The position numbers and the translations under genes were made by a program. Below the pieces are notes generated by a model. That model did not search any database and had not been told where the DNA came from. It saw only the letters and a list, made by a program, of their open reading frames with translations. DNA of 64,000 nt from a virus: IMG/VR virus record IMGVR_UViG_3300029390_000003; one strand, written 5' to 3'. Positions 21,283 to 45,636 of the stretch are shown here, in pieces. How positions within the stretch are numbered: the first letter of the stretch is position 1; every line of letters begins with the position of its first letter.

Positions 21283-21300
21283 GTATCCTGTGTTATATAG
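21283..21300 (-). promoter_or_regulatory. 18-bp conserved motif, copy a, 14 nt upstream of the ligase start.
   Basis: GTATCCTGTGTTATATAG on the + strand, CTATATAACACAGGATAC on the gene strand. It is followed by gcaAGGAGGttttATG. Confidence 0.6.
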
Positions 21301-21351
21301 TTGTAGCTAATAAAGAAAGGCTTGTCGTTACGAGCAAGCCATTTCTTTCCC

Positions 21352-21369
21352 GTATCCTGCATTATATAG
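21352..21369 (-). promoter_or_regulatory. 18-bp motif, copy b (left arm of the inverted pair).
   Basis: GTATCCTGCATTATATAG. Confidence 0.6.
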
Positions 21370-21413
21370 CTAAAGAGAGAATTTTAAGCCTCCGGGATGG
21401 AGACTTTTTATAG

Positions 21414-21431
21414 CTATATTATACAGGATAC
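21414..21431 (+). promoter_or_regulatory. 18-bp motif, copy c (inverted, right arm).
   Basis: CTATATTATACAGGATAC on the + strand. Confidence 0.6.
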
Positions 21432-36035: not shown

Positions 36036-36053
36036 GTATCCTGTGTTACTTAG
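36036..36053 (-). promoter_or_regulatory. 18-bp motif, copy d, about 90 nt upstream of the Sak4-like ATPase.
   Basis: GTATCCTGTGTTACTTAG. Confidence 0.5.
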
Positions 36054-36066
36054 CTAAGGCTAAAAA

Positions 36067-37170: not shown

Positions 37171-38744
37171 ATCAAGTCTCCTTTATGTAATTTTGTCTCA
37201 TTGATAATCACTTATGTTTCCTGTTATCGTCTTAAATCAATTCATGCACTATTCATTTTATGTATTATCCTCCGTCTGGCTTATTGATGGCTTATATTTC
37301 ATACGGCACTCGCCGTTAGAAATCGTCCTTTAAGGGATTATGTACAAACATTGCGCCGAGCACTACTGGGAGCCGTTCTGAACACTCAGGACACAAATCA
37401 AAACTCAAAAGCGAACCGTCAAGTTGGCTACCATAAGAGTATTGATGCTCAAAACTGATTCCCTGCTCGCTACCTATCGGCTTGATTTCACGACCACACC
37501 AGTTACATATTTTCTTACATGTGTTCATACGGCATCACCCCATTTTTAATATTCTCTATCACGGAACATCTTAGATTGAGCACGAGTCAATCTGTTGTTC
37601 CGACCATACTTAGGTCTGAATGCGGACTGCAGCTTGTTGTTTGCGTATTCGAGGTCACTCTCCAGAATCTTAGCAGCTTCTTCAATGTAATCTCGAATGG
37701 CACAATACTGATCGCTGTTGATACAATGCATCTTTAGATAATCAAGCATATCGATGGCCTGATTTTTCAAAAGAAGCGTATCTTCAAGCTGTGTCTTGCG
37801 CCGTTGGAAGAAATCTATATTCAACCCTGCACCTCCCCATTCTGCAGTCTTTCAAGCGTGGGACGAATCGTTCTCTCATAATGCCTTACAAATCGCCAAT
37901 CAAGTAATTGTCCGCAACGTGGACAGAAGTTATCAAGATTTGATAGTGTGTAATAACAAACCGGGCACTCATAACGTTTATAAACGTCATCGAGAAGAGG
38001 CTCTTTGTAATCTGTTCTAAACTCATAAAGTTCAGCTTTTGAAAGAATAATTTCGAGAGCCTTTGTTAAATGCTCACGAGGGCACCACTGGCCTCCTTCT
38101 TTACCAAGACGAATTTGTTTCTCTACAATTTCCTTCGCTTGGTCAAAAGTCATGTTCTCAATCTCTTTTTTCTTTGCGTGCATCCAATCTTTCATAACAC
38201 ACCACTTTCAGCAAATGCATAATTGTGCTTTGCATTCTTATCCATCCACACACCCCAATCAATTTTATGTTGACACTCTGGACATTTCGGTTCAAGCTTC
38301 TCCAGCTTCGTTACACAGAACGGACAAAGATATGTACTCTTTTCCTTCTGGAAGATAGGACTTGCCGGAAGGCTCAAAGAACCAGGGTCTATGGTTGCAT
38401 TGATAGGACTTTTGCTGTTCATCGTGTCACCTCTTATTTGAATTAGCCTTTTATGAGATTTTCTTATTACGGAATATGAGTTGCTTTGTCAACGGGCTTT
38501 TCCATTTCCTTCATAATCCGCTTGTGTTCTTCGATTGTCATGTTGTTCGGGAAGAAACACCTGTCAACCATTTCAAACGGCTTAATATAATGGTCAAGAA
38601 CATCTCGTGCTTCTTTTCGTGCCTTTTCAGCACACATCTCGATATATTCTTCTTCGGTCATGTTGTAATCGGTGACACAATCGACCACCGAAGAAAACCG
38701 ACACAGCAAACCGTTAGGCTGTCTTGCAATAAAAGCTCCCATTT

Positions 38745-40221
38745 TTATCCTCTTTGCTTTTCTGGAAAATGCTTCTTAGTTACTGCAACGCAAAAGCTAT
38801 CAATTTCTGACCCCCAAATGGCAGTACCTTCACCATATGTGCTTTGAAATACTAACGGAAAGCCGCCGATCCCATCGAAGAGGCTACCAAGAGTAGGATT
38901 CTCACCGATATACGGTTTCATCTTCTGAAAAATCCAATACCATTGCGGTAATGCGATTGAATTGCCGAGTGCCTTATAACGAACTGCGTCAGAAGTTTTA
39001 TGCTTCTTTTCGTTCTCATCAATCCAGTCACCGATATCTGTCCATCCATCAGGGAACCCCTGAAGCCGTTCATCCTCCAAAGGAGTCAAACGGCGAACAA
39101 TCCATCGTAGATTCTTCGTTTCTTTTTCTGTAATCAGGTCAGTAGCGTCCTTGTAATCACGAGATTTCATCGTACTAGCCTGTTCACTTTCCTTGTATTC
39201 ACCAATGCGTTGCATCGCAAAGGCTTTCTTCTCAATGACCAGTGGCATATTATTGCCACCAGTTCCCCACTGAGCAGTACAAGTCGGACTTGTATCACTC
39301 AGCTGAGTGTATCGAGCGTCTTGACTGTGGCTCTCAAACACCACCGGCGAAATCTTTTGTTTTAAATTATGTAAAGAGGGATTTTCTGCCAAGCAAATCA
39401 GCGTCTGGTCTTGTAACGTAGAAATCGTTGCGCTCAATTCAGTTTGAACCAGAGCGCCTTTACCGCCACCTTCACATCCAGAACGGATTTTTAGAGTGTA
39501 GGCTGCAGGTTCTGTGCATCGAGTCGAAGTCTCTCGATGGTCTGACTCCAATACTCGTCCAATTCCTTCTCTTCCAGACCTTCTTGTTCCTTCACTTTCT
39601 GCACCACCTGTGACAGAGTTCCTGGATTCCACCATTCGATCATATCCAGCAACGCTTGCTTCAGGAGTTCGGGCAAAGGTTTTCCACGCCGGGATGCTCT
39701 CACAAGAATCCCCTGACATGCTCGTGCGCTCAAATAGAATTTCTGAGGCACGTTGTCCTCCAAAATCCATGACAAGCGCGATTCTCTGGCGACGCTGGGC
39801 GACTCCCCAGTATTTAGCGTCGAACAATCTCCATGCAATAGACCATCCATTACCGGAAATCGCTCCAGATTTTGCCCACTTTCCGTTCTTCCCTGAAGGT
39901 CGAGGAATTGAAACGTCTGGCTCGACAATGCGTGCAAATCTTTCCAACACACATCTGAAGTCTTCACCTTTGCTTGAGCTGAAAGCTCCTCTGACATTTT
40001 CCCAGATTGCGAATTTTGGATATTCTCCATTAGTGGCCTCCCTCATTTCTGTAATCACACGAATCATTTCAAGGAACAATCCAGAGCGTTCACCAGCCAA
40101 ACCTTCACGTTTACCGGCCTGACTCAAATCTTGGCATGGACTGCCTCCTGTGATACAGGAAACCGGTTCAATCTGCCACCCATGAAGTTGTGTAATATCT
40201 CCGTAATGCTTCAGTTTTCAT
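38745..40221 (-). CDS. DNA (cytosine-5)-methyltransferase with circularly permuted motif order.
   Basis: From N to C the motifs run GGSPCQ (IV), ENV (VI), QRRQR (VIII), a roughly 200-aa variable region, RRLTPLEDERLQGFPDGWT and GNSIALP (IX/X), then FDGIGGF (I) and SEID (II) at the very C-terminus. The ATG at 40221 is 1 nt out of frame (A4 run). A CTG 8 nt downstream of AGGAGG is in frame. Confidence 0.75.
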
Positions 40222-40232
40222 TCCTCCTTTTC

Positions 40233-40250
40233 GTATCCTGTATTATATAG
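40233..40250 (-). promoter_or_regulatory. 18-bp motif, copy e, 12 nt upstream of the methyltransferase ATG.
   Basis: GTATCCTGTATTATATAG. On the gene strand, CTATATAATACAGGATAC gaaAAGGAGGaATG. Confidence 0.6.
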
Positions 40251-40347
40251 CTAAAACTCAGAAAATGAGCGAAAAAATAATAGACGTATCAACGTCATGT
40301 TATTTCGTCGCCTATAAAACAAAAGTTCTAGCAGGTTTTATGTACGC

Positions 40348-40424
40348 CCTATCGGGCTGGTGGGACAGGAGAGATTCGAACTCCCGACCAAGCGGTTATG
40401 AGCCGCCAGCTCTGACCAACTGAG
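40348..40424 (-). tRNA. tRNA-Met (anticodon CAT); could be a lysidine-modified tRNA-Ile instead.
   Basis: The cloverleaf was folded by hand. The acceptor stem is GGGATAG/CTGTCCC, the D-stem GCTC/GAGC, the anticodon loop CTCATAA and the T-loop TTCGAAT. CCA is encoded. Confidence 0.8.
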
Positions 40425-40661
40425 CTACTATCCCATGCAAACGCCGACTTTCGTCGGCGCGATGCCAGCGGAGGAATCGAACCTCATCTCTCGGTGTTTC
40501 CGAGCGCTTTTACCATTAAGCTATCCAGCCGTATACCTCAGAATTTAATTCTCACTATCCAAGCTACGTCGCGTTCCAATATGATCACTCTTGGCAACCA
40601 TGTCGTAACATATAGGTTCCTTTCGGCTCTGAGTAACCGGTGCAGCGTAAGGGGCTGCGTG

Positions 40662-40737
40662 TGGAGCGACTGACGGGGGACGATCCCGCAACATTCAGAT
40701 TGGAAATCTGACGCTCTGCCAATTGAACTACAGTCGC
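40662..40737 (-). tRNA. tRNA-Gly (TCC).
   Basis: The acceptor stem is GCGACTG/CAGTCGC, the anticodon stem TCAGA/TCTGA and the loop TTTCCAA. The T-loop is atypical. CCA is encoded. Confidence 0.7.
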
Positions 40738-41094
40738 ATAAGAACCAACCTAGCAACTGGCATCACTAGGCTGGGATGCTCGGCTTGCAAAGGCACGCTG
40801 CACTCTTTCGAGCGAGCCGAGAATAACGTACATGGATAATTTCGTTAGCCCCTTTCTGGGTGGTATCTTGCACAGGCGCGGCCGGATCTGACCGCTAAAG
40901 ATCCTACCCATACAAGATTGGAGCAGCGAAAGGTAGTCGAAACCTCATCCTCAGCTTGGAAGGCTGATGTACTAGCCGTTGTACGACCGCTGCATGAAAA
41001 CCCAGCTTACAAAGCACTACTGCACCATCACTGGCGAGCTGGGAATAATAGTGGTCAAAGGAGTTCAACCATGAACAACAACGATTCATGACCG

Positions 41095-41176
<82 letters not shown>

Positions 41177-41181
41177 ATAAA

Positions 41182-41252
41182 TTGCGCCAACAGGGGTCGA
41201 ACCTGTGATGGAGGAGTCAAAGTCCTCTGCCTTACCGCTTGGCGATGGCGCA
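41182..41252 (-). tRNA. tRNA-Gln (TTG).
   Basis: It has a U1:A72 acceptor pair as in bacterial tRNA-Gln. The anticodon stem is GAGGA/TCCTC, the loop CTTTGAC, and the T-arm ACAGG-TTCGACC-CCTGT. Confidence 0.8.
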
Positions 41253-41320
41253 TCATATACCCAGCTTACTGGAGAAGCATCCTACTGCCTTACTGCTAAG
41301 GAGCTGGGAATAATAGGAAT

Positions 41321-41396
41321 TGGTCTGAGCGACAAGATTTGAACTTGCGGTCCCCTGTTCCCAAAACAGGTGCGATGCCAACTTCGCTACGCCCAG
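41321..41396 (-). tRNA. tRNA-Pro (TGG).
   Basis: It has a C1:G72 pair as in bacterial tRNA-Pro. The anticodon stem is CCTGT/ACAGG and the loop TTTGGGA. CCA is encoded. Confidence 0.8.
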
Positions 41397-41403
41397 ATAT
41401 AAA

Positions 41404-41486
41404 TGCGCCCGGCGGGACTTGAACCCGCACGCCATCTCTGGCAGAAGATCTTAAGTCTCCTGTGTCTGCGATTCCACCACGGGCGC
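41404..41486 (-). tRNA. tRNA-Leu (TAA), type II.
   Basis: The acceptor stem is GCGCCCG/CGGGCGC and the anticodon loop CTTAAGA. The variable arm forms a hairpin (GCC-AGAGAT-GGC). The T-arm is GCGGG-TTCAAGT-CCCGC. Confidence 0.75.
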
Positions 41487-41686
41487 ATATAAAAGAAGAT
41501 CAGAAACAGCCAACCATTCGTTTTACATTCTAGTTTTCTGGCGAACCGAAGAGTATTTATCCGATAGCTAGTCGGCTTACACCTTATTTCTCTTCTTGTC
41601 TGGCTTGACGTCCTTTACCGGTATGACGTCTTTCCGGTCGCCAATGTACGGCCAATCCCCGAACGAGCTAGAACAACTGATCTTCA

Positions 41687-41771
41687 TGGTAGGGATAATC
41701 GGATTTGAACCGATACGTCTTTCGACACTTGAGTTTGAATCAAGCGTGGCTGCCAATTTCACCATATCCCC
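41687..41771 (-). tRNA. tRNA-Leu (CAA), type II.
   Basis: The acceptor stem is GGGGATA/TATCCCT and the anticodon loop TTCAAAC. The variable arm forms a hairpin. The T-arm is ATCGG-TTCAAAT-CCGAT. CCA is encoded. Confidence 0.8.
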
Positions 41772-41888: not shown

Positions 41889-44108
41889 TTAGCTCTTCTG
41901 CTGACTTGCGTAGAACTCATTCCGCAGCTGAATAATACCCTTCTTGCAGAAAGACTCTTGATCTTTCTCTCGTTGTTCACGCATCCAACCATAGAACAGG
42001 TTATCCTCGGCAGTAAACAACTTTGCGGTATTTTCATAATAGCCACGTTTTTGAACGCTCTGCATGACACCACGCAAGAACTTCCAGTGCTTATAATACG
42101 GAAGCTTCAGCTTAAACATGAAATTATTGCTGTCTCGCAAAACAAAGCCTTCAACGTGTTCAAAACCATGATGCAGATAGTTCTCGTTCATGACTTCTTC
42201 GTACCAAGGATAGAATTCACTCCAGTTCTCAAAGGTTTTAACCTTCTCCTTAATCTGCAGATGACACTTCTCGGCTACACGCTTCAAATCATCATAATCC
42301 ATTACACTGAAATTCATATCATTTGCAATAATATCCAGCAAAACAATGTGCGGTTTCTTATATTCGATGATATGTGCATCATTCACAGGATCAATCACCT
42401 CGAAGATGATGGAGCCATTCTCTTTTGCAACTTCTTTCAGATTCTTACGATCTTCATCAGAAGTCGTATCCATGAGAATCTTTCGGAACATATCTGCAAA
42501 AGGCCCATCAGGAGTGGATTTACTTGCAATGAACAGACCATCCTGTTCTGCATCATACGAAATGATACCAAGAAATCCGTTCTCTTTTAGATATGCAGTC
42601 ACCGGGAACTTCAAAGTGTTCTGTAGGTTTCCAATTCTCGTTTCATTCCGCTCATCAACCGCAAAGAACTTATCATAGCTTCGAGCTACAATCTTATTCG
42701 TCTTTGTGTTAATGAACAACCCTCTTGCTTTGGTAGAAACCTCATCCCAGTGCTTCTTATAAAATGCTTCACGAGAGAAGTTGAAAGAAGAAATATCTCC
42801 GAATCGCTTCTCAAACACATATTTGCTTTGACGCATCTTACTAACAAGTTCTGCGTTATCGAACTCAGTTTTCATTTCAACGGCAGTTTCAGTCTTTGGC
42901 TCCTCTTTTCGGAATACATCATTCTTGGTTTCTACGCATTTGATAGGCTGACCGTGTTCAAGCTCCACACAACGAAGATATCCACCAAACTCGATTTTGC
43001 CTTCAAGATTGTAGCACCGATGACCCATATCAATAGGAACATCCTGTACATTTCGATGGCCGAAGATCTGAATATAGCTATCCGGCATCGACTTTTCCCA
43101 AGACTCAGCCACGGTCAGTATATCAGGATAGCGGCCTACGCCTTTAATCATCTGATCCGCAGACACGAACGGAAGAAAATAAGGAAGATAGCTCAGACCA
43201 CCGTGACTTACGAAATACCGCTTACCATCATACTCAAAGTAGACACACTGGCCGACTCTGGAATAGATCTTACGAGCAGTGTTCTTGTCAATACCGGCTT
43301 TAAAGAGCTGCGGACGAGTGTAGTTTGCAAACTCTTCACTTTGAACCGGTTTATCACGCCCCCACTTGTTCAGCCAATGCTCGTGGTTCCCTTCCAAAAG
43401 GATCACATTCTTGCGGTTGTTATTTACAACATCACACAAGAACTTGAATACCTCAACGTTTTCGATGCCACGATCGAGATAATCACCAACGAAGATATAA
43501 AGCTCGTCGTCCTTCATCTCACCAAGGTATTCACTCAAGCAGGTATAGCAGCCATGAATATCACCGATGATATGTATCTTTTTCCACTGGTTAAAGTCAT
43601 TCGGGCAGTAGTTCAAATCGGACATCACATCCGTAGTAGAAGGAAGAACTGTCACGCCAGAAGGAACTTTTTGAGTAGCAAACCGAGCGTACATCTTATC
43701 AATAGCCGCTTCAGGAACTCGCTTTAGCCATTCTCTCTGAGCGTTTCTTCGTTTGCATTCCTCGATCGGAAGGTCCGTCATATCAATAACATACATCCGA
43801 TAACGATACTGTTTTGCAAGATTCTTATAACAATTCATTTCGACCGTCTTGGAATTCGTTGCATCAATCACAGTAAACTCGCCATGGCTCATCCGCACCT
43901 CAAGCAGTTTGAAAAGCATCTCCCATACAACATCATCATTCTGCTGAGAAATCTCCATCTGCCCATCAGGTGTTTCCTGTGCGCTCTGGCACATAAGGCG
44001 AAGTGTATCAACACTCAATACGTACTGCTCAAGATTATGCTCTTTAATATAGGTGGACTTCCCGCAACCGGGTGCTCCACGGAACAGTAAAAGTGTTCTC
44101 ATCTGCAT
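41889..44108 (-). CDS. Pnkp-like RNA end-healing and sealing enzyme: P-loop polynucleotide kinase, calcineurin-type phosphatase, and a C-terminal nucleotidyltransferase (ligase-like) domain.
   Basis: The N-terminus has Walker A (FRGAPGCGKST). The middle has the binuclear phosphoesterase motifs IIGDIHGCY, GDYLDRG and GNHE. The C-terminal 350 aa carry a KxNG lysine motif (AYLKENGFLGII) like ligase/adenylyltransferase motif I. The domain order matches bacterial Pnkp. Confidence 0.7.
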   Translation of the reverse strand: MQMRTLLLFRGAPGCGKSTYIKEHNLEQYVLSVDTLRLMCQSAQETPDGQMEISQQNDDVVWEMLFKLLEVRMSHGEFTVIDATNSKTVEMNCYKNLAKQYRYRMYVIDMTDLPIEECKRRNAQREWLKRVPEAAIDKMYARFATQKVPSGVTVLPSTTDVMSDLNYCPNDFNQWKKIHIIGDIHGCYTCLSEYLGEMKDDELYIFVGDYLDRGIENVEVFKFLCDVVNNNRKNVILLEGNHEHWLNKWGRDKPVQSEEFANYTRPQLFKAGIDKNTARKIYSRVGQCVYFEYDGKRYFVSHGGLSYLPYFLPFVSADQMIKGVGRYPDILTVAESWEKSMPDSYIQIFGHRNVQDVPIDMGHRCYNLEGKIEFGGYLRCVELEHGQPIKCVETKNDVFRKEEPKTETAVEMKTEFDNAELVSKMRQSKYVFEKRFGDISSFNFSREAFYKKHWDEVSTKARGLFINTKTNKIVARSYDKFFAVDERNETRIGNLQNTLKFPVTAYLKENGFLGIISYDAEQDGLFIASKSTPDGPFADMFRKILMDTTSDEDRKNLKEVAKENGSIIFEVIDPVNDAHIIEYKKPHIVLLDIIANDMNFSVMDYDDLKRVAEKCHLQIKEKVKTFENWSEFYPWYEEVMNENYLHHGFEHVEGFVLRDSNNFMFKLKLPYYKHWKFLRGVMQSVQKRGYYENTAKLFTAEDNLFYGWMREQREKDQESFCKKGIIQLRNEFYASQQKS

Positions 44109-44123
44109 CTCCCTTTCTAATAG

Positions 44124-44141
44124 GTATCCTGTGTTATATAG
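44124..44141 (-). promoter_or_regulatory. 18-bp motif, copy f, 16 nt upstream of the Pnkp-like start.
   Basis: GTATCCTGTGTTATATAG. It is followed on the gene strand by tattagaaAGGGAGatgcagATG. Confidence 0.6.
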
Positions 44142-44152
44142 TTAGCATGTTA

Positions 44153-45579: not shown

Positions 45580-45618
45580 AGTCTTTCTCCTCTATAATAG
45601 TGTAGCTCCGTTCCATAG

Positions 45619-45636
45619 CTATATTATACAGGATAC
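45619..45636 (+). promoter_or_regulatory. 18-bp motif, copy g (inverted orientation), upstream of the MazF-like gene.
   Basis: CTATATTATACAGGATAC on the + strand. Confidence 0.5.

Follow-up and report, generated by a model that had tools for sequence, protein, structure and literature searches.

DNA methyltransferases are a textbook example of circular permutation, in which new topologies arise via duplication, fusion and truncation. [quoted passage not shown] In plant DRM enzymes, which contain UBA domains, the break is located between motifs V and VI, giving the order VI-X, I-V. Among the C5-cytosine methyltransferases (C5-MTases), the Type H enzymes M.BssHII, M.Alw26I, M2.Eco31I, M.Esp3I and M2.BsaI are natural single chains with motif X before motif I. 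Their break lies in the variable region after motif VIII, resulting in the order (TRD) IX, X, I-VIII with both domains intact. Enzymes of 'Type B', in which the new N-terminus lies between motifs II and III, were absent among natural C5-MTases according to a REBASE search (Slaska-Kiss et al. 2018, PMC5944983). The authors of that study were surprised by this absence in nature and proposed weaker SAM binding as the reason. [quoted passage not shown]

The gene described here was found in the window, i.e. the whole stretch of 64,000 nucleotides of viral DNA analysed (IMG/VR record IMGVR_UViG_3300029390_000003). Its product is very probably a C5-cytosine DNA methyltransferase, circularly permuted within one chain, from a large gut phage, with activity and substrate being inferred. 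The protein has the motif order III, IV, VI, VIII, variable region, IX, X, I, II, i.e. III-X followed by I and II instead of the canonical linear order I-X, and meets the definition of a Type B (Class B) permutation (PMC5944983). A natural Type B permutation had not been described; the single natural type known for C5-MTases had its break in the variable region. We searched the literature for Type B enzymes in nature and for ORFs overlapping C5-MTase genes, and retrieved nothing except PMC5944983. An earlier sequence-only reading of this DNA had stated that the break point, placed there between motifs II and IV, is not known to have been described, in agreement with Type B missing from the natural enzymes in that study.

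Comparison with known methyltransferases

The window protein runs from motif III to X and then through I and II, like cp62M.MpeI, cp58M.SssI and the first M.HaeIII permutant group (Peisajovich, Rockah & Tawfik 2006, as cited in PMC5944983). The native C- and N-termini were joined directly in the engineered Type B constructs, as they are in the window protein. These constructs are lab-made and either CG-specific (M.MpeI, M.SssI) or GGCC-specific (M.HaeIII), whereas the window enzyme is natural, belongs to a different phage/prophage subfamily, contains a long variable region of about 220 residues, and has relatives in more than 100 diverged clusters. With the Type H enzymes it shares the natural single chain and the position of motif X before motif I. 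In contrast to these, its break lies inside the SAM-binding half, between motifs II and III. The Type H criterion (N-terminus in the variable region, IX and X before I-VIII) is not met: motifs III-VIII precede the variable region, and motifs I-II follow X, yet VIII does not follow I.

A rearranged motif order is also found in plant DRM2 and NtDRM, but these C5-MTases are eukaryotic and distant in sequence. Phmmer aligned query residues 3-56 with 285-347 of the 357 residues of 4onj, and 20-61 with 306-349 of the 352 residues of DRM2, which places motif IV near the C-terminal end of the plant enzymes. The DRM order (VI-X, then I-V) is not met by the window protein, in which motifs IV and VI are both N-terminal and contiguous. 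The overall succession of catalytic motifs, TRD and SAM-binding motifs resembles that of the beta-class amino-methyltransferases. Unlike the window protein, the latter possess a DPPY motif, methylate exocyclic amino groups, and keep motif III with I-II rather than with IV.

The closest canonical enzymes are orphan C5-MTases of the same subfamily, such as Streptococcus phage Javan191 QBX15552 and Vibrio phage CP-T1 gp12, which show 35% identity over the whole length to the re-circularised window protein. They share with it TLGSLFDGxGGFP, EMRxxTNG, ILFE, RWIVRRLTPxECERLQGFP and a nested +1 ORF. Their motif order is I-X, in contrast to the window protein, which starts at canonical position 49.

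Motif order and break point

Minus-strand translation of 38745-40250 resulted in a single frame with zero internal stops and all C5-MTase motifs, and exactly reproduced the peptide segments quoted in the sequence-only reading. These are, in order, KLKHYGDITQLHGWQIEPVSCITGGSPCQD, ENV, QRRQR, RRLTPLEDERLQGFP, GNSIALP, LFDGIGGFP, GSEID and KKHFPEKQRG followed by the stop. Pfam PF00145 (C-5 cytosine DNA methylase) matched in two stretches of the protein (E=6.4e-35, 121.6 bits; curated cut-off 22 bits). The non-canonical motif order leaves membership in the C5-MTase fold unaffected. The proposed coding sequence (40214..38745, on the minus strand as are the motifs, start signals and nested ORF described below) comprises 489 codons plus stop, with the start CTG at 40214-40212.

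Motif III (GDIT, 40202-40191) was aligned by phmmer to M.HhaI 57-64, with Asp6 corresponding to M.HhaI Asp60. Motif IV with the catalytic Cys27 (GGSPCQDLS, 40148-40122) contains P26, C27 and Q28, all invariant in 93 permuted relatives. In motif VI (ENV, 40001-39993) E72 is invariant, and N73 and V74 are kept in at least 90% of the sequences, as are Q140, R141, R142 and R144 of motif VIII (QRRQR, 39797-39783). The variable region or TRD (residues ~145-373, 39096..39782) reached an AlphaFold pLDDT of only 35-60 over residues 166-370; residues 166-241 are predicted to be disordered, and alleles of this region differ through indels. It is followed by motif IX (RRLTPLEDERLQGFP, 39095-39051; R374, E380 and L384 invariant), motif X (GNSIALP, 38966-38946; G417, N418 and S419 invariant) and, in the AlphaFold model, a helix of the C-terminal type (422-436).

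Motif I, the SAM-binding glycine loop (LFDGIGGF, 38882-38859), is located after motif X and aligns to M.HhaI 16-26. S444, L445, F446, D447, G448, I449, G451 and F452 are invariant in the 93 relatives, and the strand 442-445 has a pLDDT of 95-98. Motif II (WGSEID, 38816-38799) contains the invariant W467 and E470, the latter corresponding to M.HhaI Glu40 by alignment. All SAM-binding elements, LFDGIGGF (445-452), E470 and D6, are present and aligned to M.HhaI 16-59 and 57-64. The chain ends with the tail KKHFPEKQRG and TAA (38745..38777; stop 38747-38745). This tail is variable between lineages (FPED, FPEKEIS or FGEE before the stop), and its final codons also serve as ribosome-binding site (AGAGGA) for the following gene, which starts with an ATG at 38742.

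The permuted order on one polypeptide, as proposed in the sequence-only reading, is supported by the open frame, the conservation and alignments to known enzymes. Phmmer against M.HhaI aligned query residues 444-489 with 16-59 (motifs I-II) and residues 3-89 with 57-136 (motifs III-VI). BLASTP of the native order against the canonical Javan191 enzyme gave two alignments (1-439 to 49-522 and 441-485 to 6-48). After re-circularisation, i.e. with the last 46 residues moved to the front, a single colinear alignment was obtained (2-485 to 6-522, E=9e-93), ungapped over the junction KKHFPE/MKHYGD. Mapped on M.HhaI the break falls at residues 56/57, and on the Javan191 enzyme at residues 48/49. It lies between motifs II and III and not, as previously suggested, between II and IV, because GDIT represents motif III. 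An echo of KLKHYGD in KKHFPE, which had been taken as a sign of the permutation junction, does not reflect a duplication: both are adjoining halves of one canonical segment (...TKRMPE/VKHLGD... in canonical enzymes).

Translation start and upstream signals

A promoter-like motif, TAGCTATATAATACAGGATAC (-10-like TATAAT plus conserved CAGGATAC, 40233..40253), ends 18 nt before the proposed CTG. Its reading, TAGCTATATAAYRCAGGATAC, resembles a -10 promoter element. The conserved upstream motif claimed earlier is real: with up to 3 mismatches allowed, the window contains 8 copies of the 17-mer TAGCTATATAATACAGG versus 0.12 expected. Several copies are located 20-25 nt upstream of other gene starts, and the motif is conserved in relatives. 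The Shine-Dalgarno sequence AAAGGAGG (40223..40230), read from the sequence, is conserved in about 45 relatives. Its GGAGG is separated by 8 nt from the CTG and by 1 nt from an ATG (40219..40221), which according to three-frame translations is outside the methyltransferase frame, opens a 17-codon ORF (MKTEALRRYYTTSWVAD and stop) and is too close to the Shine-Dalgarno sequence for a good start. In the methyltransferase frame, a TGA is present two codons 5' of the CTG, immediately before the K of KLKHYGD. Hence, the start is not a plain ATG.

Translation most likely starts at the non-canonical CTG 40214-40212, which is inferred from sequence comparison without direct start data. At the aligned position of this CTG, the Toutatis-like lineage and P0106 have an ATG and a sister lineage (group B) has a GTG. 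The CTG is invariant, whereas the preceding codon varies (AAA/ACT/AAC/AGA). CTG starts are rare, and canonical start codons are missing from the window upstream of the catalytic Cys. The earlier view of a genuine start rather than a truncation therefore holds in part: the start is at the break and preceded by promoter motif and ribosome-binding site, but the ATG at this site is out of frame.

Two further explanations of the start region were rejected. A programmed +1 frameshift from the out-of-frame ATG (ATG AAA A/CTG) was dismissed because the sister alleles at the putative slip site (ATGAACTCTG, ATGAAACCTG, ATGAAGACTG, ATGGAAACTG) share no slippery site while the CTG is invariant. Regarding stop-codon reassignment, no suppressor was found among the tRNAs of the window, and its other ORFs are all read normally.

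Public gene callers chose a TTG at 40125..40127, as seen in the ORF list and in the 460-aa database proteins P0001-P0093. This codon follows the catalytic Cys, and the database proteins of this lineage therefore lack motifs III and IV. Methyltransferase censuses and motif-order classifiers mis-handle such genes, since public calls start after the catalytic Cys or split the gene. If translation took place only from TTG 40127 (460 aa), the gene would be a pseudogene or a Cys-less derivative. The in-frame TGA, the out-of-frame ATG and the uniform beginning LSQAGKREG of all 460-aa entries are in line with this. Moreover, 21 loci of group B carry a 4-nt insertion directly after the catalytic Cys codon, giving TGT-TAGC-CAA, so that at least some alleles may be catalytically dead; despite this frameshift the gene is still under selection there, a hint of a Cys-independent role. 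Against a Cys-less product, the stretch between CTG and TTG in 47 relatives shows 6/5/19 variable sites at codon positions 1/2/3 and keeps the peptide KHYGDITQLHGWQIEPVSCITGGSPCQD. The CTG is spaced 8 nt after GGAGG, aligned with an ATG or GTG of other lineages and invariant next to a freely changing codon, and the TTG has no preceding Shine-Dalgarno sequence. We regard a start at the TTG only as unlikely.

Predicted structure

The AlphaFold2 model of the 489-residue protein (pTM 0.67) has pLDDT values of 93-98 for most of residues 1-165, with a dip at ~31-50, and for residues 380-489; the target-recognition region was predicted at low confidence. In the C-terminal beta-alpha-beta-alpha segment (pLDDT 95-98), the elements E442-445, H451-460, E465-469 and H473-482 match strand 1, helix A, strand 2 and helix B. 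Foldseek reported M.HhaI (E=4.5e-9, rmsd 1.3-2.8 A), M.MpeI, M.HaeIII and DNMT1 as best matches, the top matches having 146-159 aligned columns at an rmsd of 1.3-3.0 A. Only the N-terminal block is superposed, because the aligner is sequential. Of the structural support called for in the sequence-only reading, the confident fold of both halves and M.HhaI as top match were obtained, but packing of the C-terminal segment into the SAM site was inferred from confidence values, secondary structure and sequence alignments and not from coordinates.

Canonical chains open with motifs I-II, which make up strand 1, helix A, strand 2 and helix B in the Rossmann half that binds SAM, and end with the motif X helix, packed beside motif I. 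In the permuted chain, the first residue would be the one after motif II (M-KHYGDIT, motif III); catalytic motifs IV-VIII, the TRD and motifs IX-X come next. The end is formed by motifs I-II, stopping where a canonical chain would meet motif III. As every part of the fold is present once, the SAM pocket would be completed by the C-terminal 46 residues. The predicted role is that of an orphan methyltransferase which may place 5-methylcytosine on phage DNA during replication and thereby protect it from host restriction; enzymatic activity, DNA substrate and biological role are inferred.

Distribution and conservation of the permuted form

The permuted order was found colinear with the query in 160 viral loci (80 + 80), down to 37% identity, and in the cultured Faecalibacterium phages FP_Toutatis and Lelie, although the FP_Toutatis gene is frameshifted at a G9 run. 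From the best 150 clusters (50% identity), 111 and probably 6 more are permuted and begin with M[KI]H[LY]GDIT at residue 1. The search for relatives with the same permutation, suggested in the sequence-only reading, was thus successful, with 160 viral loci and more than 100 diverged clusters. Its assumption that permuted enzymes are rare does not apply here: among the closest 150 clusters in metagenomes this is the majority form. Its carriers are gut phages and prophages of Oscillospiraceae-type hosts. Since nature makes wide use of Type B in this locus and its relatives, the proposal of weaker SAM binding can now be tested on natural enzymes.

When the III-VIII core of 142 representatives was subjected to neighbour joining, the tree did not cleanly separate permuted and canonical sequences, and 9 of the 23 canonical sequences had a permuted nearest neighbour. 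The tree is compatible with a single origin, with several origins and with recombination.

In 93 permuted relatives (44-62% identity), 27 columns are invariant, including PCQ, E72 of ENV, GNS, SLFDGIGGF and W..E. Variable sites fall mostly on codon position 3 in the N-terminal, IV-VIII, TRD, IX-X and I-II segments. For the motif I-II segment, 4/3/27 and 9/6/32 variable sites were counted at codon positions 1/2/3 in groups B and C, respectively. These data bear on the possibility that the locus consists of two tandem degraded methyltransferases, the C-terminal 46 residues being the leftover N-terminus of a second truncated copy fused by chance. It is accepted that circular permutations arise by tandem duplication with subsequent end deletions (Peisajovich et al. 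2006, as cited in PMC5944983), which means that an ancestral form of this gene must itself have resembled tandem copies. Motif X is indeed fused directly to motif I, with a linker of about 5 residues. Chance fusion of a remnant is, in contrast, hard to reconcile with the invariance of motifs I and II in the 93 relatives and with the predominance of codon position 3 among the variable sites of this segment in groups B and C. The passage from X to I contains neither stop nor frameshift, nothing is redundant or lost at either end, and the break is exact to the residue. No second copy of I-II is present upstream, where the DNA contains the promoter and then the tRNA array. Two fragments, the outcome which by the sequence-only reading would have refuted its proposal, are therefore largely refuted in favour of a single gene, and we consider them very unlikely.

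The permuted gene is located in the context of a replication module with Pol III alpha, RecD2, NrdD, RecJ and DNA ligase. Directly upstream are eight tRNA genes (40358-41771), and a Pnkp/RNA-ligase gene lies nearby at 41889-44108; small ORFs follow downstream. When GenBank phages were searched for DNA nearly identical to 38400-40600, no close relative spanning the gene emerged; only 13% of the query was covered, with the match confined to the downstream ORF. The tRNA genes and the tRNA-repair enzyme raise the possibility of a Dnmt2-type RNA (tRNA) cytosine-5 methyltransferase acting with these neighbours, and S. pombe Dnmt2 was among the fold matches (rank 36). This function appears highly improbable, given that the nearest canonical relatives are ordinary phage/prophage DNA cytosine methyltransferases, that M.HhaI, M.MpeI and M.HaeIII are the best structure and sequence matches, and that 55-60 kb Toutatis-like phages carry the gene without tRNA genes among the annotated neighbours (L001). 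An artefact, i.e. a canonical gene opened inside a circular or terminally redundant contig or a chimeric assembly, is virtually ruled out although the relatives are mostly metagenome assemblies, as both gene ends adjoin unrelated, conserved phage sequence within the window (the promoter and tRNAs on the upstream side, small ORFs on the downstream side), these flanks and the order reappear in dozens of independent 100-140 kb contigs from different samples, and the order recurs in two cultured phage genomes.

A nested ORF in the +1 frame

A second ORF of 179 codons (39491..40030) is nested in the +1 frame of the permuted gene, where it shares nucleotides with motifs VI-VIII and the beginning of the variable region. 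It was identified from the ORF list, an alternative-frame selection signature and its family-wide occurrence. Its ATG is formed from Asn-Gly codons of frame 1, and an SD-like AGGGAGG is located at 40043-40037. In the conserved core (SRLSWILEDNVPQKFYLSARACQGILVRASRRGKPLPELLKQALLDMIEWW, 39629..39781), recognised by codon-position variability, the third positions of frame 1 are near-invariant (variability 0.00-0.05), whereas the first positions of frame 1, which are the third positions of the alternative frame, vary (0.11-0.19). This shift was observed in 68 unique relatives and repeated separately in groups A and B. As judged from these substitution patterns, the nested ORF is under purifying selection in its own frame. 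In 74 bacterial genes, a set chosen by the alternative-frame peptide, alternative-frame identity was 0.76-0.84 versus 0.30-0.58 in the main frame. A set selected by the methyltransferase contained the nested ORF in 57 of 57 loci, and it was present in every family member examined, permuted or canonical.

Alternative-frame similarity as a by-product of main-frame conservation was rejected for the core, given the low conservation of the main frame there. It does hold for the N-terminal two-thirds: 'SLFGKTSPEHS' is the +1 reading of ...WENVPG..S. The ATG is conserved 92-96 codons before the core. The frame-1 Arg codon 10 nt upstream of the nested ATG is AGG in 50 of 59 genes, compared to 16% of Arg codons overall, which creates GAGG. 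As evidence for separate translation signals this is weakened by other in-frame ATGs nearer to the core and by the occurrence of frameshift-fused alleles.

We lean towards the view, in the absence of protein evidence, that the whole subfamily carries a second, translated +1 gene as old as the subfamily and tied to the methyltransferase, the overlapped main-frame stretch being a disordered passenger linker. If translated, the product would be a small basic helical protein with the core LSxILExxxPxKYYLSxKACxGILRRAxRRGKxLPxxLxxAL and would act, for example, as partner subunit, regulator or counter-defence factor. Pfam yielded only a sub-threshold Rad17 match and NCBIfam none. The PDB sequence search resulted in one chance-level match (E=1.3) with the single sequence and none with the profile, and an AlphaFold model built on a shallow alignment of database proteins had no Foldseek match at E<=0.001.

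In E. coli dcm-vsr, a second protein, the mismatch endonuclease Vsr, is also encoded in another frame of a C5-MTase gene. The nested ORF is similar to this arrangement in that a second frame is read from the C5-MTase coding sequence. Unlike vsr, which overlaps only the last few dcm codons, it is contained completely within the gene and has no match among described families. If translated, it would represent a widespread overlapping gene that had so far escaped notice in an enzyme family studied very thoroughly. One gene would then combine two unusual ways of packing and rearranging coding information, a nested gene and a Type B permutation. A match of the nested ORF to PHROG 16143 'DNA methyltransferase' was observed at 5.9e-5.

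Motif order and permutation break

The C5-cytosine DNA methyltransferase (MTase) gene lies on the minus strand, as do all genes of the window. Translation of 38745-40250 (-) reproduced the peptide quoted in the sequence-only reading in a single frame without internal stops. The motifs follow in the order GGSPCQD (IV), ENV, QRRQR, a long variable stretch, RRLTPLEDERLQGFP, GNSIALP, LFDGIGGFP and GSEID, and the protein ends in KKHFPEKQRG before the stop codon. The Pfam model PF00145 matched with E=6.4e-35, split over two stretches. A 137-kb IMG/VR viral contig (L039) matches the window over the gene and encodes the protein with 100% identity. With one stop-free frame and an exact alignment break, the permuted order in one polypeptide is confirmed and its interpretation supported; what needs correcting is the position of the break, the choice of start codon and a supposed 'echo' at the junction.

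In phmmer searches against solved structures, residues 444-489 aligned with residues 16-59 of the canonical enzyme M.HhaI, covering motifs I and II up to 'NFGEKPEG', and residues 3-89 with its residues 57-136, where 'EGDITQV' is motif III followed by motifs IV to VI. The break is therefore located between motifs II and III, not between II and IV as had been proposed. The native protein gave two BLASTP alignments with the canonical enzyme of the same subfamily from Streptococcus phage Javan191 (1-439 to 49-522 and 441-485 to 6-48). Moving the C-terminal piece to the front resulted in one colinear alignment (2-485 to 6-522, E=9e-93) without a gap at the junction (KKHFPE/MKHYGDIT versus KRMPE/VKHLGDVS). 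Judged from these alignments, the permutation is exact, no part being duplicated or lost. KKHFPE and KLKHYGD, previously taken for an echo, are thus neighbours in the canonical chain.

An AlphaFold2 model, for which 93 aligned permuted sequences served as input, reached a pTM of 0.67. Its pLDDT was 93-98 over residues 380-489 and over most of residues 1-165, apart from lower values at ~31-50. The variable region 166-370 was predicted with low confidence. The predicted C-terminal elements E442-445, H451-460, E465-469 and H473-482 correspond, within the SAM-binding half, to strand 1, helix A, strand 2 and helix B. The top matches of the model in Foldseek, whose aligner is sequential, were M.HhaI (E=4.5e-9, rmsd 1.3-2.8 A), M.MpeI, M.HaeIII and DNMT1. 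The proposed profile and structure comparison thus bore out the assignment of the C-terminal segment to M.HhaI motifs I-II and to confidently modeled elements of the SAM-binding half; that this segment packs so as to physically complete the SAM pocket is inferred from the model and was not measured.

Relation to known permuted enzymes

In an engineering study, Slaska-Kiss et al. (PLoS One 2018, PMC5944983) made 21 permutants from M.MpeI and M.SssI and grouped those with activity into ten types. Our enzyme, with its break between II and III, meets the definition of their Class B (Type B), in which the new N-terminus is placed between these motifs, as in the engineered cp62M.MpeI and cp58M.SssI. 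As reported there, this class also occurred among directed-evolution permutants of M.HaeIII. In contrast, all 27 natural permuted C5-MTases that these authors found in REBASE, including M.BssHII, M.Alw26I, M2.Eco31I, M.Esp3I and M2.BsaI, have their permutation in the variable region (Type H), a definition which our enzyme fails. It likewise differs from the plant DRM enzymes, in which motif IV is at the C-terminal end of the DRM chain. Literature searches found no report of natural Type B enzymes later than the 2018 study. The earlier impression that this break point is undescribed therefore appears to hold for natural enzymes of the II/III topology, engineered forms being known. We conclude that the window gene encodes a C5-cytosine methyltransferase with a Type B circular permutation that is both natural and widespread. 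Its fold, chemistry and evolutionary mechanism are not new. That this topology exists in nature and is abundant there seems not to have been reported before and answers a question left open by the engineering study.

Distribution of the permuted family

Many relatives sharing the permutation, for which a database search had been suggested, were found among viral loci, protein clusters and cultured phages. A word-indexed search retrieved hundreds of proteins of 87-100% identity on contigs of up to 430 kb. All 80 IMG/VR loci picked by the MTase protein were colinear with it at 65-100% identity, their source phages being ~130 kb and ~57-60 kb in size, and a further 80 loci picked by family alignment (among at least 599 matching stretches) were colinear down to 37% identity. 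When 1.84 billion cluster representatives were searched exhaustively with HMMER, 28,919 matches were obtained, the best 150 of which were classified by motif order: 111 were permuted, 6 more probably so, and 23 canonical. The permuted signature comprises M[KI]H[LY]GDIT at residue 1, Pro-Cys at ~23, GNS ~28 residues before LFDGIGG, and the end ...AVTKxxF[PG]E. Across 93 permuted representatives (44-62% identity) 27 columns were invariant, including PCQ, E72 of ENV, GNS, SLFDGIGGF and W..E of motif II. The same order is present in the cultured Faecalibacterium phages FP_Toutatis and Lelie. Genomes of Gemmiger, Candidatus Heritagella and other Clostridia contain copies in prophages. This family-wide distribution and conservation exclude both two degraded tandem MTase genes and an assembly artefact.

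Translation start and upstream signals

The start had been considered genuine because of an upstream motif and a ribosome-binding site (RBS). The motif is real: the 17-mer TAGCTATATAATACAGG had 8 matches in the window at <=3 mismatches versus 0.12 expected. The full element, -10-like, reads TAGCTATATAAYRCAGGATAC and recurs on the minus strand at 40233-40253, 44124-44144, 21352-21372, 21283-21303 and 36036-36056, where copies lie 20-25 nt before gene starts, and on the plus strand at 21411-21431 and 45616-45636. It probably represents a phage-specific promoter class. With its own promoter-like element and RBS the gene is no 5'-truncated remnant. The start codon itself is not obvious. The ATG after AAAGGAGG is out of frame with the MTase; a single nucleotide separates it from GGAGG, and it begins an ORF of 17 codons. 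In the MTase frame, a TGA is found two codons 5' of a CTG and immediately precedes the K of KLKHYGD. The earliest in-frame ATG, GTG or TTG is the TTG at 40127 (40125-40127, -), downstream of the catalytic cysteine. Hence hundreds of near-identical database proteins (including P0001-P0093) are 460 aa long, begin with LSQAGKREG and lack motifs III and IV, and motif-based surveys would score them as inactive.

Several observations argue for translation from further upstream. Between the CTG (40214-40212) and the TTG, 47 sequences showed 6, 5 and 19 variable sites at codon positions 1, 2 and 3, variation being largely confined to third positions. The CTG is invariant, whereas the preceding codon differs freely among relatives (AAA, ACT, AAC, AGA). 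The CTG is located 8 nt downstream of GGAGG. It aligns with ATG in the Toutatis-like lineage and in the related protein P0106 (MKHLGDIT...) and with GTG in a sister lineage (GGAGGTGGTTTGGTGAAACAT). A coding sequence of 489 codons at 40214..38745 (-) starting with CTG is thus inferred rather than demonstrated.

A conserved overlapping reading frame

The +1 frame of the MTase gene contains a nested ORF of 179 codons (40030..39491, -) with a conserved core at 39629-39781 (-). Its peptide LSWILEDNVPQKFYLSARACQGILVRASRRGKPLPELLKQAL... gave tblastn matches in 132 GenBank phage records; those in Vibrio phage CP-T1 and Javan191 come from the +1 frame of C5-MTase genes with canonical motif order and overlap motif VIII. 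When 68 unique relatives selected with the MTase protein were aligned, MTase-frame third positions carried the variability everywhere except at gene nt ~436-585 (window ~39779-39630). There it dropped to 0.00-0.05, and first positions, the third positions of the alternative frame, rose to 0.11-0.19. Two sub-lineages separately displayed this shift (30/11/6 and 24/12/6 variable sites at MTase-frame positions 1/2/3). On this codon-position evidence, the C-terminal part of the nested ORF is under purifying selection.

A scan over one genome per bacterial species with the profile of the nested peptide gave at least 600 stretches, at least 584 of them confirmed, and 80 loci were kept. In 76 of 77 core-bearing loci the core was in the +1 frame of a C5-MTase ORF, adjoining motif VIII; 53 of the 76 were canonical and 4 permuted. 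In 65 bacterial genes the core-containing stop-free run had a median of 135 codons (minimum 84), versus a median of 13 (95th percentile 58) for other +1 runs. Since this set had been selected by the alternative-frame peptide, the test was repeated on viral loci selected only by MTase motifs. All 57 analysable loci had a +1 run of 117-224 codons, and 53 carried the core by strict pattern, the other 4 a recognisable variant. The nested ORF thus occurs in canonical and permuted genes alike.

Constraint is limited to its C-terminal ~50-95 residues; the N-terminal part ('SLFGKTSPEHS...') is a mere +1 reading of ...WENVPG.... AlphaFold predicted residues 1-83 as disordered and 85-173 as helices (pLDDT 70-87), and the MTase residues over the core beyond 'ILFE' (166-241) as disordered. 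No family, PDB sequence or fold match to the nested ORF was found; a profile search retrieved 1,823 short unannotated proteins. In nearly all genes of the peptide-selected bacterial set, 92-96 codons separate its first ATG from the core, and the MTase-frame Arg codon 10 nt upstream of this ATG is AGG in 50 of 59 genes, versus 16% of Arg codons overall, which results in a GAGG Shine-Dalgarno-like site. Internal initiation at this ATG, a nearer ATG or frameshifting remain unresolved options, and alleles joining the N-terminal MTase half to the alternative frame exist. We lean, with considerable reservation, towards the nested ORF being translated into a product of unknown function. This conserved overlapping frame merits its own experiments.

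Genomic context and likely role

The large ORFs around the MTase gene make up a module for replication and nucleotide metabolism, encoding Pol III alpha, a RecD2-like helicase, NrdD, RecJ, DNA ligase and a Pnkp-RNA ligase. Eight tRNA genes (Met, Gly x2, Leu x3, Gln, Pro; 40358-41771, -) are located directly upstream of the MTase gene and immediately downstream of the fused polynucleotide kinase / phosphatase / RNA ligase 1 gene (41889-44108, -). This arrangement places a tRNA-repair module beside the phage's own tRNAs. Because of its homology to canonical phage and prophage enzymes of the subfamily and its location in the replication module, the MTase most likely is an orphan DNA methyltransferase shielding phage DNA from restriction, although its activity is inferred and its target sequence unknown. 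A tRNA-methylating role, for which the neighbouring tRNA genes are the sole hint, is unlikely: Toutatis-like phages carry the MTase gene, yet its annotated neighbours in FP_Toutatis (L001) include no tRNA genes.

Variant alleles

The gene of FP_Toutatis (NC_047915, ~2390-2400) contains a frameshift at a G9 run and is therefore annotated as two 'DNA methyltransferase' CDSs. In this phage and in eight database proteins (P0156, P0184, P0191, P0200, P0208, P0210, P0214, P0218) a 1-nt shift joins the half with motifs III-VI to the nested +1 peptide, which could reflect homopolymer phase variation, sequencing error or loss of function. The sister lineage with a GTG start (21 loci: L045, L049, L051-L054, L057-L065, L070-L073, L075, L076) has an insertion of 4 nt (TGT TAGC CAA) that directly follows the codon for the catalytic Cys, at ~70 nt of the gene and homologous to window ~40134. 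It creates an in-frame TAG and places the remaining gene in the +1 frame. This downstream frame seems to be under selection, since variation is still found mainly at third codon positions. In two loci (L043 and L044; ORF of 663 codons) and two proteins (P0094, P0112) motif IX is interrupted between LQGFP and GWTDIG (homologous to window ~39050). The inserted ~175 residues are in frame and include an HNH_3 (PF13392) endonuclease domain, and the junctions look unlike those of a canonical intein. In the 567-aa protein P0111 the MTase ORF continues into a dUTPase domain (PF00692) just past motif I, probably owing to a deletion that joined the MTase to a downstream gene.
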